Sequence record: OZ035799.1
Direction: 5' to 3' (one strand)
Length of the DNA: 64,000 nucleotides
Source of the DNA: Justusliebigvirus alia
Below the pieces are notes generated by a model. That model did no database searches, was not told where the DNA came from, and saw nothing but the letters and a program-made list of their open reading frames with translations. Position numbers and translations under genes: made by a program. How positions within the stretch are numbered: the stretch's first letter is position 1; every line of letters starts with the position of its first letter. Of the stretch, positions 1-9,238 are shown piece by piece.

Positions 1-138
1 GAATAGCTGGGCGGTCGCTAACTTTGGGCAATGGTCGAGCGTTGAGTACATCGAAGCCTACCAGGTGCCAACGATTAGCCTAACCGATCTGAATGTTGAT
101 CGCTTGTTGTGCCTGGATCAATTAAATTAAAAATAATA

Positions 139-196
139 TTGACAAGATAACTAAAATCAGTAAAATGTAATGCATAGGGCGGCAATAGTGCCGCTC
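139..196 (+). promoter_or_regulatory. sigma70-like promoter (TTGACA-N17-TAAAAT) followed by GC-rich hairpin GGGCGGCAATAGTGCCGCTC (PeSL-like cassette)
   Basis: -35/-10 hexamers with about 17-bp spacer; inverted repeat immediately downstream, about 20 nt before ATG at 218. Confidence 0.6.
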
Positions 197-217
197 CTAG
201 TGAGAGAGATTATCAAA

Positions 218-433
218 ATGACTAATATCCGCACCTTGTTAAAAAATGCAAAGCAAGTTTTATTTTCAGATGACGAATATTTTAATAAAGATATTACAGG
301 CGTGAAAAATTTAAAAGACGTGAAGGATGTTATCGGTATCCGTGGATCTTTACGTAAAGGTGACATATACGGTAACAAGGTGCAATATAAACTGTCAAAA
401 GATTATGATTTTACTTTGACATTTATTTCATAA
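218..433 (+). CDS. hypothetical protein (71 aa; start refined to internal ATG behind RBS)
   Basis: ORF track 170..433; ATG at 218 follows purine-rich RBS and the 5-prime hairpin. Confidence 0.55.
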   Translation: MTNIRTLLKNAKQVLFSDDEYFNKDITGVKNLKDVKDVIGIRGSLRKGDIYGNKVQYKLSKDYDFTLTFIS

Positions 434-478
434 AACCGCTTGCAATACTGCAAAAATAAAGTAAACTGTACTCATCAA

Positions 479-500
479 GGCGGTGGAATAGCCCACCGCC
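479..500 (+). promoter_or_regulatory. 5-prime UTR hairpin GGCGGTGG-N6-CCACCGCC
   Basis: perfect 8-bp inverted repeat upstream of ATG at 524. Confidence 0.45.
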
Positions 501-523
501 TAACAAAGAGAAGAGGAAACATC

Positions 524-694
524 ATGATCACTTTCGCTACCCGTGAAGCCGCTCGCAACGTTGCACGTAAAGTTAACGCCGCCAACCTGGGCGCTACGCT
601 TAAAGCCCCGGTAAAAGATGAATCAGGTAAATGGATCTTCCCTGGTCTGCGTCACGCTGATAAGCTGGGAACGTTAACGCTAAAAAATAAATAA
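524..694 (+). CDS. hypothetical protein (56 aa)
   Basis: internal ATG of ORF 440..694 preceded by RBS AAGAGAAGAGGAAAC and hairpin. Confidence 0.5.
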   Translation: MITFATREAARNVARKVNAANLGATLKAPVKDESGKWIFPGLRHADKLGTLTLKNK

Positions 695-701
695 AATCCG
701 C

Positions 702-760
702 TTGACAGTAGCATCATTTATAAGTAAAGTAACAACAACGGCGGGAAATGGTTTCCCGCC
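702..760 (+). promoter_or_regulatory. PeSL-like cassette: TTGACA-N17-TAAAGT promoter plus hairpin GGCGGGAAATGGTTTCCCGCC
   Basis: promoter hexamers and 9-bp inverted repeat; same hairpin recurs at 3049, 3415, 5061. Confidence 0.65.
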
Positions 761-780
761 ATCAATAAAGAGATAAGATC

Positions 781-1140
781 ATGAAATCAGTAAAAGCAAT
801 TAAAACTTACATTGTGTCGGCTATTTCTTTTGATGGTACTACAACCGAAAAAGAAAAGATCACCGAACTGATGCGCCGTTTTAACTCTGAATACTGGTAT
901 CCCGATAATCAAAAACGTTACAATTATAACGTGATCAAGGCGATAGCCTCATGGTTACAAGGTTTACCGTCAGAAATCAATATTGCTTTTGATTATAACG
1001 AGATCGATCACTTGTTAATTGAATGGAAGTACATAAAAGAAACAAGCAAAGAAACAACCGTTACCCGTGAGCGGGAAAATTATTGGTTATATATTGCAAG
1101 CATGATCGTAATCCTGGCAAAACAGCATAACGTGGCGTAA
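781..1140 (+). CDS. hypothetical protein (119 aa)
   Basis: ORF with RBS AAAGAGATAAG; downstream of PeSL cassette. Confidence 0.65.
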   Translation: MKSVKAIKTYIVSAISFDGTTTEKEKITELMRRFNSEYWYPDNQKRYNYNVIKAIASWLQGLPSEINIAFDYNEIDHLLIEWKYIKETSKETTVTRERENYWLYIASMIVILAKQHNVA

Positions 1141-1155
1141 TTAAGAGGAAGAAAC

Positions 1156-1293
1156 ATGAACGCATCACAGCAGATCGAAAAATTCAACCGCAGCAAGGCG
1201 CGTAAAGATTGGAACGAAGAGATCACCAAAAAAGGCGACAAGCGGAACAAAACAAAGAGAGATCGCAGCACAAAAAGATACTGGAACGAATAA
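1156..1293 (+). CDS. small basic hypothetical protein (45 aa)
   Basis: ORF not in track (<60 aa); RBS AAGAGGAAGAAAC; followed by terminator. Confidence 0.45.
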   Translation: MNASQQIEKFNRSKARKDWNEEITKKGDKRNKTKRDRSTKRYWNE

Positions 1294-1300
1294 CAAAAAA

Positions 1301-1324
1301 GGGCGCAATAAGCGCCCTTTTAGC
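1301..1324 (+). terminator. rho-independent terminator (GGGCGC-AATAA-GCGCCC + T-run)
   Basis: GC hairpin followed by TTTT. Confidence 0.7.
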
Positions 1325-1411
1325 TTATATAGAGGCTTGTTACCCATAGGCAATGGTAATGCCAGGATAAGCCTATAAACCACGTTAGACAGCTTTACAG
1401 GAGCTTTAAAA

Positions 1412-1594
1412 ATGAAATTAGAAGAAATAAGCAAGGCACTAGCCCAGGGGCAAAGGTTAAACGCCCGTTATCGTGATCAATATGGCTTCATAACCAGCGG
1501 CGTGATCCTGGGGATTGAAGGCAATAAGATTTTTATTGACACGTTGAAAAACGTTGTATATAGTGACAATATAATCTCAATAAAACATATATGA
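1412..1594 (+). CDS. hypothetical protein (60 aa)
   Basis: ORF with RBS ACAGGAG. Confidence 0.55.
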   Translation: MKLEEISKALAQGQRLNARYRDQYGFITSGVILGIEGNKIFIDTLKNVVYSDNIISIKHI

Positions 1595-1602
1595 GGCAAG
1601 AA

Positions 1603-2004
1603 ATGAAAAAATTATTGATCGCTGGTTTAATCTCTTTTGGCATGGTTGGAACATCTAGCGCGGCGATATCCTCCACAGTAGCAGAATTAAGCGCCGTTGA
1701 TGCAATGGAAAACGTCATGCTTATTAATAATGCGATCCCCGATGAAATCATGGAGGATTCACACATGATCGCTTATGGTGCTGTTACACAACTAACGGCA
1801 AAAATAGATAAATCTATTGTTAATGGCTTAAATGAAGATGTACCATGTGAAATTATTACCAGTGTGCTCACTACTCAAAATTTTACGCCGTGGTTAAAAA
1901 GTATTCAAAAAGTACACAGTACAGCCGCAGATCGTAGCAATGAAAAACTAGTGTCAGCACTTGCAACGTATACCCTAGCAAAATGTACCGAGATAAAAGA
2001 TTGA
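1603..2004 (+). CDS. hypothetical secreted protein with N-terminal signal peptide (MKKLLIAGLISFGMVGTSSA)
   Basis: hydrophobic N-terminus with A-x-A-like cleavage context. Confidence 0.55.
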   Translation: MKKLLIAGLISFGMVGTSSAAISSTVAELSAVDAMENVMLINNAIPDEIMEDSHMIAYGAVTQLTAKIDKSIVNGLNEDVPCEIITSVLTTQNFTPWLKSIQKVHSTAADRSNEKLVSALATYTLAKCTEIKD

Positions 2005-2027
2005 CAATATAGAAAGCACGTTATAAG
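2001..2027 (+). promoter_or_regulatory. sigma70-like promoter (TTGACA ... TATAAG)
   Basis: hexamers upstream of CDS 2052. Confidence 0.45.
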
Positions 2028-2051
2028 ATACACACAACAAAGGAGAACTAC

Positions 2052-2354
2052 ATGAACGGCATAGCTAAAACGTTTTTTCTTTTTTCTGGTGTAAATGATC
2101 CATCAATAAAAGTCGATAGTGTAAAAGAAAACAATACTATCACAGCTAAATTGTCTCAAGATGAAACAAATAACGTGCTAATCATTAATCTTAAAGAAAT
2201 AACAAAAGGTTATTACACTATTGCTTACCATGCGATCTATAATGCTGGTACTAGTGAGGAAGTGCAAACAAGCAACAACGAAAGCGCGGCGCTACCTGGT
2301 GATCTGGTGCTGGGCGTTATCAGTTTAATTGTCAATGATTTTTTTAAGGAGTAA
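2052..2354 (+). CDS. hypothetical protein (100 aa), hydrophobic N-terminus
   Basis: ORF with RBS AAAGGAGAAC. Confidence 0.6.
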   Translation: MNGIAKTFFLFSGVNDPSIKVDSVKENNTITAKLSQDETNNVLIINLKEITKGYYTIAYHAIYNAGTSEEVQTSNNESAALPGDLVLGVISLIVNDFFKE

Positions 2355-2612
2355 AACCATGCCCTATTTACATTTATTTTTCGGTATCTTATTGACAGGA
2401 TCTTTTTTCTTCTGTATGCTTGTTTCTATTGTAAACCACGTTTTAAGACATTAAGGAAACAGCATGAAAATTATTCCCGTACAGTATAGCGTAATAAATC
2501 CAGCATATGAGGAAGGAAGGAAAACAAGCATGGCTTTATGTTGTATTGCTACTATAGCCATGTTATTATATATTGTGTTTTAATAGGTTTTATAGTTGTA
2601 CGCTTTAAAGGC

Positions 2613-2641
2613 TTGACAATTTTTTGTTATGCTTTAAAATA
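2613..2641 (+). promoter_or_regulatory. sigma70-like promoter
   Basis: TTGACA-N17-AAAATA upstream of CDS 2684. Confidence 0.45.
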
Positions 2642-2683
2642 TATCTTGAAAACGGCAAAGGCCGCAAACAAAAGGGTAAAATT

Positions 2684-3007
2684 ATGAAATCTGTGATCGG
2701 TGTTTATTTGGATAACTCTGATTTTTTCTATCATCGTGCGCGTTTCCTTGATGCGATTGAAATGATAGAATCAGGCTTTAAAGAGTATCGCCTTGCACAT
2801 GATGACCTGGAAGCATTACAGGGCAATAGTGTTTTTACATTGCAAGCTAAAGCACTATGCAAAAGCCGGATCGACATTGCAAGCAAAAAGATAGAACGCG
2901 GCATGTCCTGGTTGCGCACCGCAGAAATCAACATGGGGCAATGGTACGGCGAAAACTTAGAAAATAAACACACTTTTGTAAATGTAGAAAATATTAAAGA
3001 TTATTGA
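2684..3007 (+). CDS. hypothetical protein (107 aa)
   Basis: internal ATG of ORF 2624..3007 preceded by RBS AAAGGGTAAAATT. Confidence 0.55.
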   Translation: MKSVIGVYLDNSDFFYHRARFLDAIEMIESGFKEYRLAHDDLEALQGNSVFTLQAKALCKSRIDIASKKIERGMSWLRTAEINMGQWYGENLENKHTFVNVENIKDY

Positions 3008-3070
3008 TTGACAGCACACCTGATAAGTAATATATTGTATCTCATAGAGCGGGGAAATGGTTTCCCCGCC
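3008..3070 (+). promoter_or_regulatory. PeSL-like cassette (TTGACA-N17-TATATT + hairpin GCGGGGAAATGGTTTCCCCGC)
   Basis: promoter hexamers plus inverted repeat before ATG 3090. Confidence 0.65.
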
Positions 3071-3089
3071 TTAACAGAAGAGATAAGAT

Positions 3090-3374
3090 ATGAAGATCAC
3101 AAAAGCACTTTCCAACTATGCAGCACGTCGCGGCTTATGCTTAACCGTTGAAAACTTAGGGAAAGAAGATTTTTTGTGCTTTTGGGAGCTTGAGAATGAT
3201 AATGAGTGGATCTTCTCTTATTCTATCTGCAAAGATCAAAATGGTTGCTTGTTAACATGGCGAGGTAATATCTATTTACCGGAAGAAATAAAACAAGAAT
3301 TACCAGGCACGATCATGACTGAGAAACAGCTTAAGGAAGTGATCAATTTTGTAGGGCAAAACATTAAAAAATAA
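3090..3374 (+). CDS. hypothetical protein (94 aa)
   Basis: ORF with RBS AGAAGAGATAAG. Confidence 0.6.
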   Translation: MKITKALSNYAARRGLCLTVENLGKEDFLCFWELENDNEWIFSYSICKDQNGCLLTWRGNIYLPEEIKQELPGTIMTEKQLKEVINFVGQNIKK

Positions 3375-3375
3375 T

Positions 3376-3437
3376 TTGACAGTAGGCAAACAACGTAGTA
3401 AAGTTTATCACATAGGGCGGGAAATGGTTTCCCGCTC
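3376..3437 (+). promoter_or_regulatory. PeSL-like cassette (TTGACA-N17-TAAAGT + hairpin GGGCGGGAAATGGTTTCCCGC)
   Basis: promoter hexamers plus inverted repeat. Confidence 0.65.
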
Positions 3438-3458
3438 ACAACAAAAGAGAAACAAATC

Positions 3459-3629
3459 ATGATCCCGACTATGTTTTACGTATCGCGCAAAGGTCACAAT
3501 ATTTTTTGGTCTGAAGATTTAAATGAAGCCATGACGTTTGCCCGTGATCGTGTTGCTATCGGTGGCGTTAATATTACCGTAACCGATGAAAACGGCATTG
3601 AATACTACAACGGCGACGATGAAGAGTAA
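3459..3629 (+). CDS. hypothetical protein (56 aa)
   Basis: ORF not in track; RBS AAAAGAGAAAC; directly behind PeSL cassette. Confidence 0.5.
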   Translation: MIPTMFYVSRKGHNIFWSEDLNEAMTFARDRVAIGGVNITVTDENGIEYYNGDDEE

Positions 3630-3636
3630 TTAATAA

Positions 3637-3658
3637 GGCGGGGGGAGTATTCCCCGCC
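3637..3658 (+). promoter_or_regulatory. GC-rich hairpin GGCGGGGGGA-GTAT-TCCCCGCC in 5-prime UTR
   Basis: inverted repeat 20 nt upstream of ATG 3678, no T-run. Confidence 0.5.
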
Positions 3659-3677
3659 ATCAATAAAGAGATAAATC

Positions 3678-3947
3678 ATGAAAATATCATTGGACGTTGC
3701 AATCAAGGCCATCGAATCCGGTTACACCCTGGTAAAAGATGATAAGGCTAAAATAGTGCATCATGTTAACAAGGAAACAGGCGAAAGCATGATCACATAT
3801 AAAGCCGCCTACTTTCTCCAATCAGTAGCAGATCCGCGCGTACAGCGCCAGGTCACGGCGGCTATTGCTAAAAAATTATGTGCTTTACAGGGCACAAGTT
3901 TTAACGAGATCCCGCCGTGTTTTGACTGGTCGAGCTTGAAAAAATAG
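3678..3947 (+). CDS. hypothetical protein (89 aa)
   Basis: ORF with RBS AAAGAGATAAATC. Confidence 0.6.
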   Translation: MKISLDVAIKAIESGYTLVKDDKAKIVHHVNKETGESMITYKAAYFLQSVADPRVQRQVTAAIAKKLCALQGTSFNEIPPCFDWSSLKK

Positions 3948-3948
3948 T

Positions 3949-4005
3949 TTGACAAAAATTATAAATCGGGTAGAATGTATTTCGTAGGGCGGCAATAGTG
4001 CCGCT
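3949..4005 (+). promoter_or_regulatory. PeSL-like cassette (TTGACA-N17-TAGAAT + hairpin GGGCGGCAATAGTGCCGCTC)
   Basis: same hairpin sequence as at 177-196. Confidence 0.65.
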
Positions 4006-4027
4006 CGCAACTAAAAGAGAAATCATC

Positions 4028-4222
4028 ATGGCGCTTAAAAAACTAACAAGCAATACTCGTTGGGATGAAATCGACGGGGAAGTATACATTTTCGCCCGTA
4101 AACCAGGTGATCAAAAATGGTCAAAGGCTTTTACTTGTCACCCTGCAACAATAGATCTAATAAAAAGTAAAGGTTTACGTGAAGCAGTAGCGAGAAGTTT
4201 ACTGATTCCTTGTAAAAAATAG
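4028..4222 (+). CDS. hypothetical protein (64 aa)
   Basis: internal ATG of ORF 3998..4222 behind RBS AAAAGAGAAATC. Confidence 0.5.
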   Translation: MALKKLTSNTRWDEIDGEVYIFARKPGDQKWSKAFTCHPATIDLIKSKGLREAVARSLLIPCKK

Positions 4223-4223
4223 T

Positions 4224-4285
4224 TTGACAATATGCGGTTATCTGGTAAAGTGTACCACGTAGGGCGGGGCAATAAGGCAACGCCC
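4224..4285 (+). promoter_or_regulatory. PeSL-like cassette (TTGACA-N16-TAAAGT + hairpin GGGCGGGG...CGCCC)
   Basis: promoter hexamers plus inverted repeat; followed by a 34-aa membrane-peptide ORF at about 4304. Confidence 0.55.
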
Positions 4286-4418
4286 ACTAATGAGGGTAAA
4301 ATCATGTTAGAGAAAATTTTCACGGTTGTAATAGTGGGCCTGGCGTTATCGGTTGGAGTGATTGCAACTATGGCTAACATGATCCTATCTTCCCACGGTA
4401 TTGGATAAGGTGAATCAA

Positions 4419-4634
4419 ATGATCACGAATAAGACAGGTAAAACGGAATTTTTACGCGGCTTGCAAATAGGTAAACCTGAGATCTGGCATTGCACTAAAA
4501 GACCACGTGACGAAATGAAAGATTTCACCGCTACTTTACAACGTGTTAAAATATCTATCACACAGAAAAAAGCCTTGTTAGTAGTAGAAAACGAGATCCC
4601 GCAAACCATTATTATTGTCGAGCGTACAGCATGA
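4419..4634 (+). CDS. hypothetical protein (about 71 aa)
   Basis: ORF track 4401..4634; start ambiguous (4401 or 4419). Confidence 0.5.
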   Translation: MITNKTGKTEFLRGLQIGKPEIWHCTKRPRDEMKDFTATLQRVKISITQKKALLVVENEIPQTIIIVERTA

Positions 4635-5017
4635 AAACTGAAATCATTAACGAAATGATCAACGGCTATAAAGAAGCCTTTATTTTTGCCGAACCAGCGA
4701 CGGATCACAATGGGGAATATATTGAGAATCTAGACGATTATGATTTTTCTCCTAGCGCCCTGAAACGTATTACCAGCGATGTGACCGCCTTTTGTAGTGC
4801 CAATGTTGCCGCTATCTCTGAGGCAATGAGCGACGGCGCAACAGCAAACCAGATCGGGAATGACTTACATTTCACCCGTAACGGTCACGGCGTAGGCTTT
4901 TGGGATCGCCCTGAAATATACACTACTAACACCGCCAACCGCCTAACAAATGCAGCTAAATTAATGCCATCGGTGCATGCTTACATTGGTGAAGATAATT
5001 TGATTTATATTGAATAA
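4631..5017 (+). CDS. hypothetical protein (128 aa)
   Basis: ORF, start overlaps upstream stop (ATGA coupling). Confidence 0.6.
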   Translation: MKTEIINEMINGYKEAFIFAEPATDHNGEYIENLDDYDFSPSALKRITSDVTAFCSANVAAISEAMSDGATANQIGNDLHFTRNGHGVGFWDRPEIYTTNTANRLTNAAKLMPSVHAYIGEDNLIYIE

Positions 5018-5022
5018 AAGTA

Positions 5023-5081
5023 TTGACACCGATCCCCAGTATGGTATTATTTACCACGTAGGCGGGAAATGGTTTCCCGCC
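5023..5081 (+). promoter_or_regulatory. PeSL-like cassette (TTGACA-N17-ATTATT + hairpin GGCGGGAAATGGTTTCCCGCC)
   Basis: promoter hexamers plus inverted repeat. Confidence 0.65.
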
Positions 5082-5104
5082 AGGTAATCAAAAAGGTAAA
5101 TACT

Positions 5105-5494
5105 ATGCGCAACCTGGTTTCTGTTTCTAACGTTGAAAAATTCCAATCTTTACAGGGTATCGTTAACAACGTAGCGCCTTTTTTAGTCAATGGCTTGATT
5201 GCAAAGATGAAGAATAAACATCATGCCGCATGGTCTGCTTACTGCTTTGACAATGATGAAAAAGCGGCTGAAATGATGTTAAATATGCTGTTAGACAGTG
5301 TAGAATCATCTTTACCGGAAAACATCGCAGAAGAGATCACCTATCGTTATAATATGGCGATCACTTACCAGGAGGTTGCGCAATTTAATATGATGGATGA
5401 TGACGAACAACAGGATCAGGAAATTTTCTGGGAGTATGCTGATCGCCAATCGGCTTTTGATGAAAAATTAGCGATGTATTATAATGAATATTAA
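5105..5494 (+). CDS. hypothetical protein (129 aa)
   Basis: ORF track start 5069 lies inside the hairpin; ATG at 5105 has RBS AAAAGGTAAAT. Confidence 0.6.
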   Translation: MRNLVSVSNVEKFQSLQGIVNNVAPFLVNGLIAKMKNKHHAAWSAYCFDNDEKAAEMMLNMLLDSVESSLPENIAEEITYRYNMAITYQEVAQFNMMDDDEQQDQEIFWEYADRQSAFDEKLAMYYNEY

Positions 5495-5510
5495 TACACG
5501 GTAAAAGAAA

Positions 5511-5536
5511 GGGGCGCACTAAGCGCCCTTTTTTGT
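5511..5536 (+). terminator. rho-independent terminator (GGGGCGC-ACTAA-GCGCCCC + T6)
   Basis: GC hairpin plus TTTTTT. Confidence 0.75.
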
Positions 5537-5957
5537 ATTCTTTTTTCACAATGGAAGCGACACGTAAAGAATAGGCGTAAAGGTGGCGTAAAACCATCTA
5601 AAACCGACTGTAACCGCTTAAACAAGGTAGGAATGATTAATCACCTTACCAGGATGAAAAAGCCGTTATAAAGCTATCTAGAGCGTTTAAAGCACATAGG
5701 AAATAATTTGCTTTTTATCTTGCCTTTTATTCTGCTTTTGATTATTATTATGGAACGGGCGGCACCTGGGGACAGGGGGAAGATAATCACCGGACGACCC
5801 CGCTATATATTGATAGCTAACATCTATCAAACAACAAAACATCAAAGAAATAAACTATCAAATCTTTACAATCTCATCTATTGACCGATAAATCATAGCA
5901 GTTTAATATTGTTTTTAGAGGGTAGAACATACCCAAAACGAAAACAGGAAAAAGAAA

Positions 5958-6194
5958 ATGAAAGAAGTCATGATCCTCAAAAAATCACCTATTTTACGTG
6001 GTGGCTTTATCGCTTACTCTGATGATCTGTTAATTGCAACGGTTGCAAAAATACTAAAATCAGAAGAGGATAGTAAAAACGGCGTTTATCGTATCTGTTT
6101 CACCCGTGGGAAATTGCAAGGCAAGATCGCCTATGCTTTTGATTTACAAGATGTAAATGATAAAATCTGCGCTGTTATTGATTATGCAAAATAA
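5958..6194 (+). CDS. hypothetical protein (78 aa)
   Basis: ORF with RBS ACAGGAAAAAG; promoter-like TTGACC ... TAATAT upstream. Confidence 0.6.
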   Translation: MKEVMILKKSPILRGGFIAYSDDLLIATVAKILKSEEDSKNGVYRICFTRGKLQGKIAYAFDLQDVNDKICAVIDYAK

Positions 6195-6206
6195 TTAACT
6201 TTCTTA

Positions 6207-6240
6207 TTGACACCGGATCACGCTTACATTATTATTTATC
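6207..6240 (+). promoter_or_regulatory. sigma70-like promoter (TTGACA ... ATTATT)
   Basis: hexamers upstream of CDS 6282. Confidence 0.5.
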
Positions 6241-6281
6241 ACGTAGGGCAAATCATTTTAAACGGTAAACGAGGAAACACC

Positions 6282-6665
6282 ATGAGCAATATCATCAACC
6301 TGGCAGCGACTGTAAACGGTAAAGACTTTAACGGCGCTGTAGACCGTGATCCTATGTGGTGCTTATCAGTGTTTAAAGGCGACCTGGTTGAAGTTAGAAC
6401 AACCGAAGGGTATAGCGATGATTATAAATGCGAGATCCATTTACATAACTGGTACACGGGTAAAACTTATGCGCTGAATCACGCGTTTATCGGGAAAATT
6501 GAATATCGCGAAATGATCGACGAAGAAACGGGGCAAGATTTTAGCGATTATGTTTATATTCGTTCCGAAACATTAGCCGAACGGTTGATCGAGAAAATGA
6601 AAGCAAAAAATAAAATTAATTTATCTCATTGGATTGATATAACAAACGATCCAGCTTATCAGTAA
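6282..6665 (+). CDS. hypothetical protein (127 aa)
   Basis: internal ATG of ORF 6207..6665 behind RBS ACGAGGAAAC. Confidence 0.6.
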   Translation: MSNIINLAATVNGKDFNGAVDRDPMWCLSVFKGDLVEVRTTEGYSDDYKCEIHLHNWYTGKTYALNHAFIGKIEYREMIDEETGQDFSDYVYIRSETLAERLIEKMKAKNKINLSHWIDITNDPAYQ

Positions 6666-6681
6666 ATAACATTCCATACAA

Positions 6682-6707
6682 GGGCGCAATAAGCGCCCTT
6701 TCTTTTT
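6682..6707 (+). terminator. rho-independent terminator (GGGCGC-AATAA-GCGCCC + T-run)
   Basis: same hairpin as terminator at 1301. Confidence 0.75.
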
Positions 6708-6913
6708 ACCTCAATAAAGATGATAGCTTTTACCTATCAAAAACGTTCACCGAAAAAAGTGAATAGATCGCGGTATCGAGCTAATCAAGGAGCAGATGAA
6801 CAACCATACCATGAAGATCATAAGGCGCTTACAACGTGTTTTAGACCGCTTATTTTTAATTTCTTCATGCAACTATCTGGCAAAAACAGCCTTTTTCTTG
6901 TCTTTCCTCTTAA

Positions 6914-6987
6914 ATGATAATCATTCTTATTTATAGCTGATTATTTATGCAATAAACTGCATAATGCAATAATGATAATCATTCTTA
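6914..6987. repeat. two copies of 17-bp direct repeat AATGATAATCATTCTTA, each a Fur-box-like palindrome
   Basis: exact repeat at 6914-6930 and 6971-6987; core matches E. coli Fur consensus GATAATGATAATCATTATC. Confidence 0.55.
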
Positions 6988-7346
6988 ACTTATGACCATC
7001 TAACCTATAAAATAATAAGTTATCTAACTAAATTAAAACTAATTATCTTACTTTTATTTATAACTTACTGTTACTATCTCATTGATAACCTTATATTAAA
7101 CAACAATAACTAATATAAATCATTACTAAGCTAAATATAATCTATCTAACCTTTAAAACTATAACTATAATCTATTGAATTATTGCACAAAGTAACTATT
7201 AAATCGTTAGTAACATTACTAAATAATTAATATCCTATTTATTTATGATCTAATCTTTACCTTACTATCTATTACCTAAATAATCATTTTATACCGTAAT
7301 CATTTCATACAATAATTATAACAAGAAATATAATTAGCAAGCGTAT

Positions 7347-7523
7347 CATTAGCAGCCTATGCCGGACACATAGGCGGCTAATAATAACGCAACTACACAC
7401 CCCACATAATAACCATCACCGATAGTTATTATTTGTGCTTATGTAGCTTGCAACAACTGCAAGCGCAACAATATACATGGTATATTGTATTCCCTTACAT
7501 TGTTGCGGTGCGTTATTATTAGC
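7347..7523. repeat. nested inverted repeats (outer 15-bp IR GCTAATAATAACGCA at 7377-7391 / 7509-7523; inner hairpins at 7347-7369 and 7448-7466)
   Basis: reverse-complement matches seen directly in sequence. Confidence 0.5.
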
Positions 7524-7550
7524 TAATGTTTAGAACATTGGCTATAATAT

Positions 7551-7620
7551 AAGCTATCCAATAATATAAGCTATCCAATAATAATAAGCTATACAATAAT
7601 AATAAGCTATACAATAATAA
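7551..7620. repeat. four tandem copies of a 17-18 bp unit AAGCTAT(C/A)CAATAATAAT (iteron-like)
   Basis: head-to-tail repeats seen directly. Confidence 0.7.
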
Positions 7621-7916
7621 ACATCGTGAATAATGATGCTGATGATCATAATGCGCCACCTTCCAGGGCGGCGCTATGTGAACACAAAGAAATCTTTCTT
7701 GTCAAGAAAAATATTAACACTATTGCGCAAAATTATTTATATATGAATAGATGGTTTTTCATACTATTGCCCCTATAACATACCTCATTTGTTGCAATGT
7801 ACCTTCCTATTTGTTGAGTATAGTTATAGCCTATTTGTTGAGCCTACTTTCTTAAAAGCGCAATAAAGTAGAAATATCTTGATTTTTAGTCGGTTTTATA
7901 GTACAGAAAGTATGCA

Positions 7917-7932
7917 AATGATAATCATTATC
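7917..7932. promoter_or_regulatory. Fur-box-like palindrome AATGATAATCATTATC
   Basis: 17 of 19 positions match the 19-bp Fur consensus. Confidence 0.5.
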
Positions 7933-8097
7933 AGCTATCTTCCACGGGTAGCACTATTTCACGCCAGATCATTTCATTTGGCAAGGTGTATATAGATGTT
8001 TAGACTTGCCAAGCCATTGATTTACTTAGAATTTATCTGTTTTGTTGTGAGTAGTACCTTTCTTGCTCAGAAAATAATCAAAAGTCTTATAAGTCAT

Positions 8098-8133
8098 TGA
8101 ATGATAATGCAAATGATAATTATTCTCATTGAT
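8098..8133. promoter_or_regulatory. Fur-box-like elements (GAATGATAATG / AAATGATAATTATTCTCATT)
   Basis: partial matches to Fur consensus. Confidence 0.35.
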
Positions 8134-8502
8134 ATTTGAGGGGGACGGTCGGCAGAAATCGGGGGGCGCTGAAAATCGCGTTAAGCACCTCTCGCAAGCG
8201 AGCAGTATTTTGCGGCAAGTTATTGATATTATTGACTTTACGCTTATGAAAAGGGGGTGTGTCGAAATAAATCGGGTATACCGGAAAATTTTTGTGGCAT
8301 AGATATTTATTTGTCTATATTATGTACAAAGGGGTGTGTTAAAAATATTAGGTATATATAGAATAATTGATAGGGAAATCCTATGCTAATCCCTCCATTA
8401 ATGATGTTCCTATGTTACTGTTCTTGTAATAGATGAAAAGACGCTGTATGATGTGTGGCATGAAACGTAAACTTACAACGTAAACTTATAAAGGAGTCTG
8501 AT

Positions 8503-8880
8503 ATGTGTGTTCCTCTTAGCAGTCCACTGCTGTTAGAATTTTACAAAGCATGGATGCAAGATCATTCCTCAATGCATCGTGAGAATGTTGGTTTGTGTAT
8601 TTGCCTTATGGATTATCTGGCAACCACTATGTCAAAGAAAAAACCTACGCGAGAAGATATAGAACATTTCAAAATGGTTCGCAGTAAAACGCTGGAAGAG
8701 ATGAAATTGCAATTCACGTGTGCTGGGCTATCCTCCTTCCTGCCCTTTAATGATGATCTTCTGTGTTATGAAGATGAAGGTAAGAAACATTCTTGCCATA
8801 CTAACCCAGAGAGATTGCAGTGGGTGAAAGATCGTATTGCCGATTCATGTTTGGTGTTAGGGGGTGATAATGAAAAGTAA
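8503..8880 (+). CDS. hypothetical protein, paralog family member A (125 aa)
   Basis: RBS AAAGGAG; shares motifs GLCxCLxD, FTCAGL, LPFN, RLQWVKDRI with 8870, 11162 and 12154 ORFs. Confidence 0.7.
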   Translation: MCVPLSSPLLLEFYKAWMQDHSSMHRENVGLCICLMDYLATTMSKKKPTREDIEHFKMVRSKTLEEMKLQFTCAGLSSFLPFNDDLLCYEDEGKKHSCHTNPERLQWVKDRIADSCLVLGGDNEK

Positions 8881-9238
8881 TATTCCGTTGAGTAGTGCAG
8901 CTTTAATACGATTCTATAAAGCATGGATTGCCAACCATCCGGCAATGAATCGCACAACGAGTGGCTTGTGTGGTTGTCTGGTAGATTATGTAGATGATTT
9001 TGTTGGTGAGGTAACTAGAGAAGAAGATAAAAGATGGCGTGATCGTTTGTTGGATAGTTTGAAATACGAAATGAGGAAACAATTTACATGTGCAGGACTG
9101 GACTACAATCTTCCGTTCAATGCAGATTGCATGGATTACCTTTCAGAATGTATAGACTTGGCGTGTCATACCAACACGTTACGTCTTCAATGGGTGAAAG
9201 ACAGAATCGAAGATGCAAATAATGCTTGCATTGAATAG
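8870..9238 (+). CDS. hypothetical protein, paralog family member B (122 aa)
   Basis: RBS AGGGGGTGA; tandem to member A with same motifs. Confidence 0.7.
   Translation: MKSNIPLSSAALIRFYKAWIANHPAMNRTTSGLCGCLVDYVDDFVGEVTREEDKRWRDRLLDSLKYEMRKQFTCAGLDYNLPFNADCMDYLSECIDLACHTNTLRLQWVKDRIEDANNACIE

Follow-up and report, generated by a model that had tools for sequence, protein, structure and literature searches.

What are the GC-rich hairpins that stand between promoter and start codon in an array of small phage genes, and do the modules to which they belong serve as units of gene exchange? The question is raised by a 64,000-nt stretch of Justusliebigvirus alia DNA (sequence record OZ035799.1; hereafter the window, numbered from its first nucleotide), in whose first 6 kb a first-pass annotation had recognized recurrent modules of promoter, hairpin, ribosome-binding site (RBS) and ATG and likened them to the promoter early stem-loop elements (PeSLs) of T4-like phages (Arbiol et al. 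2010, PMC2839356; Comeau et al. 2014, PMC4122927). Sequence reading combined with scripted scans confirmed the module at the places where it had been reported. We consider it probable that the array consists of PeSL-type expression and shuffling cassettes in a lineage outside the T4-like phages, with the stem-loop serving as a 5′-leader hairpin. Within this combined explanation, the cassette and shuffling part is held with high confidence, and a role of the hairpin in protecting the mRNA is advanced tentatively, as a proposal that may well turn out otherwise.

The region is best read as a hyperplastic 'ORFan array', ~9.5 kb long, of a virulent phi92-like phage; its downstream two-thirds lie in the window. 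Positions 1-7000 are 100% identical to record OZ035770.1 (Justusliebigvirus alia) and 95-97% identical to ~50 phi92-like Escherichia coli myoviruses of the subfamily Stephanstirmvirinae. In phage alia, an annotated relative (97% identical), all genes of the region lie on the + strand, all are labeled 'hypothetical', and the array extends ~3.3 kb upstream of the window start, where seven additional modules are found. The phi92 counterparts, gp225-gp248, end about 1.1 kb short of the right terminal repeat (343 bp), and the array therefore adjoins the physical genome end.

Between positions 139 and 6235, the + strand carries 12 near-consensus sigma-70 promoters of the form −35 TTGACA, spacer of 16-18 nt and −10 TAnnnT, ten of them with a perfect TTGACA (Table 1). 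A stable GC-rich hairpin follows eight of these promoters (M1, M2, M3, M6, M7, M9, M10 and M11) and a weak one of 4-5 bp follows two (M5 and M12); M4 has no hairpin, M13 keeps GTAGGGC, the first hairpin bases, and a ninth strong hairpin, M8, is found with the usual leader and RBS and without a promoter. The hairpin lies 9-12 nt past the −10 and 18-23 nt before the ATG, while the stop codon of the upstream gene falls 0-13 nt before the −35, inside an A-rich tract (20 nt 5′ of the −35; AAAAAATAGTTTGACA is an example at M9 and M10). The leader that follows the hairpin is unstructured and A-rich, with a GAG-type or AAGAGA-type RBS ahead of the ATG. Across copies, the hairpins measure 18-24 nt, with stems of 6-10 bp and loops of 3-6 nt, and in a model-free count over 14 loci the stem core begins 10-12 nt past the −10 in 31 of 38 distinct promoter-anchored hairpins.

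When the module is defined strictly, by a −35 with at most one mismatch and a Watson-Crick stem of at least 6 bp, six copies are found on the + strand of positions 1-6300, against a mean of 0.003 and a maximum of 1 in 300 dinucleotide shuffles; the remaining 57.7 kb, both strands summed, hold two. Some details of the first-pass annotation had to be adjusted. The hairpin GGCGGGAAATGGTTTCCCGCC, counted there four times, is present in two exact copies, the others being one single-mismatch copy and one register-shifted variant, whereas GGGCGGCAATAGTGCCGCTC does occur in two exact copies; likewise, the pattern of one small gene per module applies to most of them, with M3, M4 and M10 driving 2-3 genes instead.

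The predicted leaders, taken from 7 nt past the −10 to the ATG, fold to a single hairpin with a folding free energy (dG) of -14.5 to -18.7 kcal/mol (z -2.5 to -4.8), in which the stem base GGCGG/CCGCC is conserved and the RBS is left unpaired. A MAFFT alignment of all hairpin variants was not structure-consistent, and a gapless 9-3-9 seed with Infernal re-alignment was used instead. The resulting covariance model (R1, eleven hairpin copies), run on both strands of about 145 kb of genome, gave matches at E<0.01 confined to the array, the top match outside it scoring 15.8 bits (E=0.17). In the model alignment of 30 distinct sequences from 14 loci, 98.5% of the cells are paired and five of nine pairs are changed on both sides; the covariation score is 0.436, compared with 0.20 in shuffles (0/500) and at most 0.17 with the 3′ partners slid. 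This alignment is fitted to the model, hence the additional model-free count given above. The pairing is thus clearly maintained. An Rfam search over window 1-9000 returned no relevant hit at E<=1 and chance-level matches only. In an IMG/VR scan, the exact hairpin 21-mer was present in two contigs only, and the distribution of the element is therefore narrow; a loose gapped module pattern gave, among the matches listed, one per contig, probably by chance.

The evidence for exchange comes from a blastn comparison of window 1-7000 with 13 relatives, among which genes are gained, lost and replaced with junctions inside modules, bearing out the presence/absence polymorphism that the first-pass annotation had expected at cassette boundaries. 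The junctions, resolved to within 8-17 nt, include chimeric modules, to which one module contributes the promoter and a different one the hairpin top, RBS and gene. Thus phi92 lacks window 3453-3984, and its junction runs from the M7 promoter to ATAGGGCGG and then into the hairpin top, RBS and gene of M9. KKP3954 lacks the M9 gene, the M9 promoter being joined to the M10 hairpin within GTAGGGCGG; the same gene is missing from PaulScherrer, through a crossover in the stop-codon/−35 block AAAAAATAGTTTGACAA, and PD114 presents a third solution for it. W22 carries an insertion at M10, between two copies of TAGGGCGG, that consists of a hairpin top, an RBS, a 52-aa gene and a new promoter, and phAPEC8 is devoid of 3666-4259, with the M8 hairpin directly abutting that of M10. 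ESCO8 has the M13 promoter, a full hairpin, a gp247-like gene and then a TAGGGC remnant, and phi92 replaces window 5081-6228 up to the −10 of M13; the hairpin-less M13 of the window is therefore a deletion product.

Furthermore, 112 records match window 3440-3950, and both genes are present in 63. Many Phapecoctavirus genomes match only up to the M8 hairpin (query end 203-226) and others only from 229 onward, so that the promoter-less hairpin is also a boundary. The exchange extends beyond the subfamily: Vequintavirus NHEP1 is 98.5% identical to window 3406-4004, a two-gene cassette that reaches from just past the M7 −10 to the M9 hairpin, and its flanks are unrelated, while another Vequintavirus is 91% identical over 3941-4632 and parts from the first exactly at a TTGACA. 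Modules make up about 15% of the region and contain 38 of the 62 homology-block ends: promoters account for 16 of these, hairpins for 11, leaders for 7 and the gap from −10 to hairpin for 3, with 1 more just upstream of a promoter. These genome comparisons show genes being deleted, inserted and replaced through crossovers inside the repeated modules, most often in GTAGGGCGG, which covers the predicted start site and the hairpin 5′ arm, or in AAAAAATAGTTTGACAA, and cassettes moving between Justusliebigvirus, Phapecoctavirus and Vequintavirus. Joining at several positions within the module is what short-homology recombination between repeats would predict.

How far, then, does the likeness to PeSLs go? 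Six features of PeSLs, whose listed traits also include terminator activity and excision as encapsidated mini-circles, were tested and found in the array: promoter, A/T tract with stop codon, stem-loop, Shine-Dalgarno sequence (SD) with ATG, ORFan context and chimeric junctions. Both elements are composites of ~85-100 nt that combine an A/T tract containing a stop codon, a near-consensus sigma-70 promoter, a stable stem-loop, an SD and a start codon. Both cluster in a hyperplastic stretch of small ORFans, and in both the indel or replacement junctions that separate close relatives fall inside the modules, including within or beside the stem-loop. The resemblance proposed in the first-pass annotation therefore holds for architecture and shuffling, but not for the molecular role of the stem-loop. 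PeSL stem-loops fall into five published positional subclasses; a place downstream of the −10 is one of these, though not the usual one (PMC2839356). Most stem-loops lie between the −35 and −10, overlap them or precede the promoter, and they have been shown to terminate transcription (PMC2839356, PMC4122927). Here, in contrast, the stem-loop always stands past the −10, in the predicted transcribed leader, it lacks the signature of a terminator, and the array has canonical terminators besides it. The stems differ as well, with a GGCGG/CCGCC base rather than the polyG/polyC or A3G3/C3T3 stems of PeSLs, and so do the phages, which are Stephanstirmvirinae and Vequintavirinae rather than T4-like. 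A literature search retrieved no PeSL description outside T4-like phages and no account of such elements or of transcript maps in phi92-, phAPEC8- or rV5-like phages; the rV5 paper lists promoters and terminators only.

We propose the following model for the array. Each repeated expression cassette of about 85 nt comprises, in order, an A-rich tract with the upstream stop codon, a sigma-70 promoter, ~10 nt, a GC hairpin of 8-10 bp, a leader of ~20 nt and the ATG. To judge by their geometry, the near-consensus promoters would be used by unmodified host RNA polymerase, presumably early. The module, being repeated, serves as portable homology for gene gain, loss and replacement. If transcripts start 6-9 nt past the −10, the gap of 9-12 nt places the hairpin about 2-5 nt from the 5′ end, where it would be the first structured element of each mRNA and could shield that end from RppH and 5′-end-dependent RNase E. 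A ribosome bound immediately 3′ of the hairpin would help this protection and cover the rest of the short leader, and the hairpin may in addition insulate the RBS of a newly acquired gene from upstream sequence. It would not act as the terminator of its unit, transcription ending instead at three separate GGGCGC-type intrinsic terminators.

Such a function has precedents. RppH and RNase E depend on single-stranded 5′ ends, and 5′ secondary structure therefore stabilizes mRNAs in E. coli; the hairpin of the ompA 5′ untranslated region and that of papA, like those predicted here a few nucleotides from the 5′ end and ahead of an accessible RBS, belong to an arrangement known to block RppH and 5′-end-dependent RNase E entry (PMC3997798). 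In those cases the function was shown by half-life measurements, whereas here it is deduced from promoter geometry, and here a single hairpin family would equip about 15-20 neighboring units and double as a recombination site. The leader hairpin of phage T7 gene 10 is likewise a 5′-terminal mRNA stabilizer. Stabilizers of this kind start about 0-4 unpaired nucleotides from the 5′ end, to be compared with the 2-5 nt predicted here.

Several points weigh against this model. Start sites, timing and the inclusion of the hairpin in the mRNA are predictions from promoter geometry. An unbiased count of stem oppositions in the promoter-anchored hairpins gives 14 G.T and 12 A.C, so that the two strands fold equally well, and selection at the RNA level is not distinguished from selection on a DNA palindrome. 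Moreover, quasi-palindrome correction by template switching could yield 'compensatory' changes without selection. Other consensus promoters, both in the same genome and in a Vequintavirus, have short leaders, strong SDs and no hairpin, so that a 5′ hairpin is no general requirement for the host-transcribed mRNAs of the phage. Within the array itself, the conserved M8 hairpin lacks a promoter and the M4 and M13 promoters lack a hairpin. Finally, the breakpoint enrichment is partly expected, as viable gene-sized indels must end in intergenic DNA, about half of which consists of modules, and for this reason the junction sequences are more telling than the enrichment.

Two further notions were set aside. 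The view of the 5′ hairpin as a general trait of the phage's sigma-70 promoters is ruled out by the hairpin-less consensus promoters of the window and of a Vequintavirus; the hairpin belongs to the ORFan array alone, whose SDs are weak (GAG), and this too tempers the proposed protective role. The first impression of a G.U strand asymmetry, given by the many G.U pairs of the model-fitted alignment, proved an artefact of model scoring.

The absence of strand asymmetry among the wobble pairs is compatible with recognition of double-stranded DNA, and the palindrome might be the site of a phage-encoded regulator, either as a DNA operator at +3 to +25, through which every array promoter would be shut off at once when the early phase ends, or as an RNA tag bound by a protein that co-regulates the translation or decay of about 20 early mRNAs. 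A place right after the −10 is typical of operators, the element is limited to one co-regulated gene array, and next to the conserved GGCGG/CCGCC base the loop-proximal AAT(A/G)G hardly varies from copy to copy. We nevertheless regard this alternative as unlikely: the variable arm length and half-site spacing described above would be awkward for a rigid dimer, the upper stem varies by paired substitutions, the modules of the homologous Vequintavirus array carry unrelated short GC hairpins at the same position (e.g., GGGGGCAAGCCCC and GGGGCAAAAGTGCCC), and no candidate regulator was identified.

Termination, the role demonstrated for PeSLs, deserves separate consideration. The hairpins could be terminators or attenuators that damp read-through from the upstream cassette, each gene being expressed mainly from its own promoter; after all, a PeSL stem-loop in RB49/phi1 cut lacZ as much as rrnB T1 (PMC2839356), the module stems are very stable and GC-rich, the promoter-less M8 hairpin lies between two genes, and the annotators of phage Paula did name the hairpins terminators, though on the minus strand. 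However, no U tract follows any module hairpin on the + strand, the 3′ tails being of the type ATCAATAA, ACAACAAA and GCAACTAA, and none passes the + strand terminator scan; the hairpins at 740-760 and 3637-3658 pass it on the gene-free minus strand only. The array possesses three canonical terminators of a separate sequence family, GGGCGC-loop-GCGCCC with a T run (T1 to T3), which split it into multi-promoter units; the + strand scan passes T2 and T3, and T1 belongs to the same family. In addition, termination 3′ of the promoter would abort the cassette's own transcript, and a fixed distance from the −10 would be needless for a terminator, given that PeSL stem-loops take five positions (PMC2839356). 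What the module hairpins share with intrinsic terminators is a GC-rich hairpin in intergenic DNA, which here follows a promoter rather than a gene, and we judge a terminating function to be quite improbable.

The database annotations of these hairpins can be assessed in the same light. We reject the minus-strand terminators of the Paula record: the array has no minus-strand genes, and a T-rich tail is found on that strand in only two of nine hairpins. In the phAPEC8 record, GTAGGGCGGCAATGGTGCCG is annotated as 'putative promoter determined with PHIRE' (locus 556-575, 937-956, 1787-1806 and 3202-3221), a call that simply reflects the repeated 20-mer. Both annotations, minus-strand terminator and 'phage promoter', are probably wrong.

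It is also conceivable, although we give it little credence, that the hairpin has no expression role at all and is a selfish or neutral palindrome, akin to repetitive extragenic palindromic (REP) sequences or miniature inverted-repeat transposable elements (MITEs), that spreads with the cassettes, or that it is kept only because it promotes recombination, replication stalling at the hairpin and switching template from one short direct repeat to another. The hairpin base and the promoter-less M8 hairpin are recurrent crossover sites, the structure is equally good on both strands, the other promoters of the phage work without a hairpin, and the element is confined to the hyperplastic region. Such an origin would not, however, account for the tight spacing to both −10 and ATG, which is kept despite differing intervening sequences; nor for the retention of the hairpin in orthologous modules beside diverged genes, as at M3, where nieznany and KKP3954 keep it though the downstream gene is only about 75% identical to that of the window. 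The −35 block hosts crossovers too, so that the hairpin is not the sole recombination site.

A more far-reaching possibility, which we likewise consider doubtful, is that the GGCGG-stem hairpin is the core site of a dedicated, integron-like cassette-exchange system, with the hairpin directing recombination to GTAGGGCGG. The system would be shared by at least two virulent coliphage subfamilies, Stephanstirmvirinae and Vequintavirinae, and the hairpin could work either in single-stranded form while the DNA is replicated or by way of a phage protein recognizing it; if so, any captured gene would come already fitted with a promoter, a 5′ end that protects its mRNA, and an RBS. As in integrons, single-gene cassettes are parted by imperfect palindromes, at which they come and go. 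Integron cassettes, in contrast, have no promoter, and IntI recombines them site-specifically at attC in its folded single-stranded form, whereas here the cassettes bring their own promoter and the crossovers occur at several places (hairpin base, −35 block), as short-homology recombination predicts; no integrase is annotated in the flanking 31 kb. Finally, chance co-occurrence of promoter-like and palindromic sequence in AT-rich phage DNA, where promoter-like matches are common (41 versus 29.5 expected), is refuted by the six strict composite modules and by the exact 20-21 nt hairpin repeats (expected 0.00), and the modules are moreover conserved across many phages.

Two known RNA elements were also ruled out as models for the hairpin. 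The stems of 8-10 bp are too short for an RNase III site, and a lambda-type nut/boxB element is not supported, there being no boxA and no GNRA-like pentaloop, and antitermination being needless on one-gene units.

As a whole, the array of leader-hairpin cassettes recalls the host-takeover module of Bacillus phage SPO1, whose 24 small genes, grouped into about 12 units under strong early promoters, lie in the terminal redundancy. Both combine a dense set of strong early promoters for the host RNA polymerase (predicted in the present case), each with few small genes of mostly unknown function, beside a genome terminus. The two differ in host and phage lineage, which are unrelated, and we know of no description in SPO1 of a repeated leader hairpin or of promoter-located cassette shuffling.

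Table 1. Promoter-hairpin modules (M) and terminators (T) of the array, in window coordinates
Feature	Span	Strand	Promoter	Hairpin or terminator stem	RBS and ATG	Gene(s)	Remarks
M1	139..220	+	-35 TTGACA 139-144; -10 TAAAAT 161-166	GGGCGGCAATAGTGCCGCTC 177-196	GAGAGAG; ATG 218	218-433 (71 aa)	Hairpin dG -16, z -3.8
M2	440..526	+	-35 TTGCAA 440-445; -10 TAAACT 462-467	AGGCGGTGG..CCACCGCCT 478-501	ATG 524	524-694 (56 aa)	Hairpin dG -18.7, z -4.8; -35 is TTGACA in the nieznany ortholog
M3	702..783	+	-35 702-707; -10 TAAAGT 725-730	GGCGGGAAATGGTTTCCCGCC 740-760	ATG 781	781-1140, 1156-1293	Hairpin 38.3 bits (covariance model)
T1	1297..1321	+		AAAAGGGCGC-aataa-GCGCCCTTTT			Canonical terminator-like; sequence family other than module hairpins
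M4	2001..2054	+	TTGACA-17-TAAGAT	No hairpin	Strong SD AAGGAG; ATG 2052	2052-2354, 2359-2454, 2464-2583	
M5	2613..2686	+	TTGACA-16-TAAAAT	Weak, 4 bp, 2653-2664	ATG 2684	2684-3007	Hairpin dG -6, z -1.3, not significant
M6	3008..3092	+	-35 3008; -10 TATATT 3031-3036	GCGGGGAAATGGTTTCCCCGC 3049-3069	ATG 3090	3090-3374	-35 abuts upstream stop codon TGA (3005-3007)
M7	3376..3461	+	-35 3376; -10 TAAAGT 3399-3404	GGGCGGGAAATGGTTTCCCGCTC 3415-3437	ATG 3459	3459-3629	Left border of mobile two-gene cassette
M8	3637..3680	+	None	GGCGGGGGGAGTATTCCCCGCC 3637-3658	M3-like leader/RBS; ATG 3678	3678-3947	Hairpin 25.7 bits
M9	3949..4030	+	-35 3949; -10 TAGAAT 3971-3976	GGGCGGCAATAGTGCCGCTC 3987-4006	ATG 4028	4028-4222	Presence of gene varies among relatives
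M10	4224..4306	+	-35 4224; -10 TAAAGT 4246-4251	GGGCGGGGCAATAAGGCAACGCCC 4262-4285, interrupted	ATG 4304	4304-4408, 4419-4634, 4631-5017	Hairpin dG -17.2
M11	5023..5107	+	-35 5023; -10 TATTAT 5045-5050	GGCGGGAAATGGTTTCCCGCC 5061-5081	ATG 5105	5105-5494	
T2	5506..5534	+		GGGGCGC-actaa-GCGCCCC + T run			Canonical intrinsic terminator
M12	5881..5960	+	TTGACC-17-TAATAT	GGGTA-gaaca-TACCC 5920-5934, 5 bp	ATG 5958	5958-6194	Hairpin dG -7.1, z -4.3; other gene in its place in Paula and phi92
M13	6207..6284	+	TTGACA-17-TATTAT	Remnant GTAGGGC 6243-6249	ATG 6282	6282-6665 (Phage_30_8)	
T3	6680..6700	+		AAGGGCGC-aataa-GCGCCCTT + TCTTTTT			Canonical intrinsic terminator; array end

Pfam and PHROGs searches with ten array proteins returned phage families of unknown function or no PHROG hit, the sole Pfam outcome being Phage_30_8 on the last gene. 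The product of the first gene, at 218-433, is named 'phosphoribosylpyrophosphate synthetase' in several records; it has no Pfam hit and falls into a PHROG of unknown function, and the name is almost certainly a propagated annotation error. A second labeling oddity concerns several 'Campylobacter phage' records (MG065639, MG065645, MG065689 and others; A150, A145, A110a), which are about 146 kb long, give Campylobacter jejuni as host and are 95% identical to the window over the whole 7 kb; the host label on these phi92-like records may reflect mislabeling or sample contamination. At the head of the array in alia, upstream of the window (locus 8500-8660), the first promoter, TTGACG-17-TAGTAT at ~8502, is followed by ~130 nt of GC-rich, apparently non-coding leader, which may be a structured RNA, and then by a small ORF.

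Two promoter-hairpin arrangements of other kinds were noted on the minus strand outside the array. At ~41548-41470, TTGACT-17-TAGTAT is followed after 11 nt by an unrelated hairpin, AGGAGAGC-tat-GCTCTCCT, an RBS and an ATG; at ~21982-21900, TTGACA-18-TATAAT precedes a terminator-like hairpin, AAAGCCCC-caagca-GGGGCTTT with ATTTG, that lies just before the RBS and may be an attenuator.

The non-coding DNA of the region has features of its own. Downstream of T2, positions 5736-5885 form a conserved non-coding block (GAACGGGCGGCACCTGGGGACAGGGGGAAGATAATCACCGG...) that is 88% identical in phAPEC8 (locus 4330-4477), and a similar sequence follows a terminator in Vequintaviruses (locus about 4110-4138); the block gave no Rfam hit and could be a small RNA or a non-sigma-70 promoter. 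Past the last terminator extends a 1.8-kb AT-rich non-coding region (6701-8480) with Fur-box-like sequences: TGATAATCATTCT at 6915 and 6973, together with variants at 7919 and 8114, makes four matches against 0.19 expected, and AATGATAATCATTATC at 7917-7932 agrees with the 19-nt Fur consensus of E. coli at 16 positions. Upstream of the array, the other non-coding region of alia has this motif family too, arranged as inverted repeats (locus 7750-7850). At 7545-7620 a unit of 17-18 nt, AATAATA(A)TAAGCTATNC, occurs four times in tandem, and the 343-bp direct terminal repeat of phi92, mapped from its record, would correspond to about 7776-8118, so that the physical genome end probably lies inside the window.

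The small early genes of large virulent phages are the usual hunting ground for host-takeover and anti-defence functions, and how they turn over so fast is understood only in part. The array introduces no new principle in this respect; what it adds is a well-resolved case of modular cassette shuffling in a further phage lineage and between subfamilies. Until now the PeSL idea was founded on three pairs of T4-like phages, and the same logic now appears in an unrelated myovirus lineage. As a practical consequence, both current database annotations of the hairpins are probably in error, and the combination of promoter, 5′ hairpin and RBS is a compact natural part for phage engineering. The fixed placement of the hairpin at the predicted mRNA 5′ end provides a testable hypothesis on how early phage messages survive, and the finding of one cassette at near identity in different subfamilies suggests that promoter/hairpin modules may be a common currency for gene flow between co-infecting coliphages.

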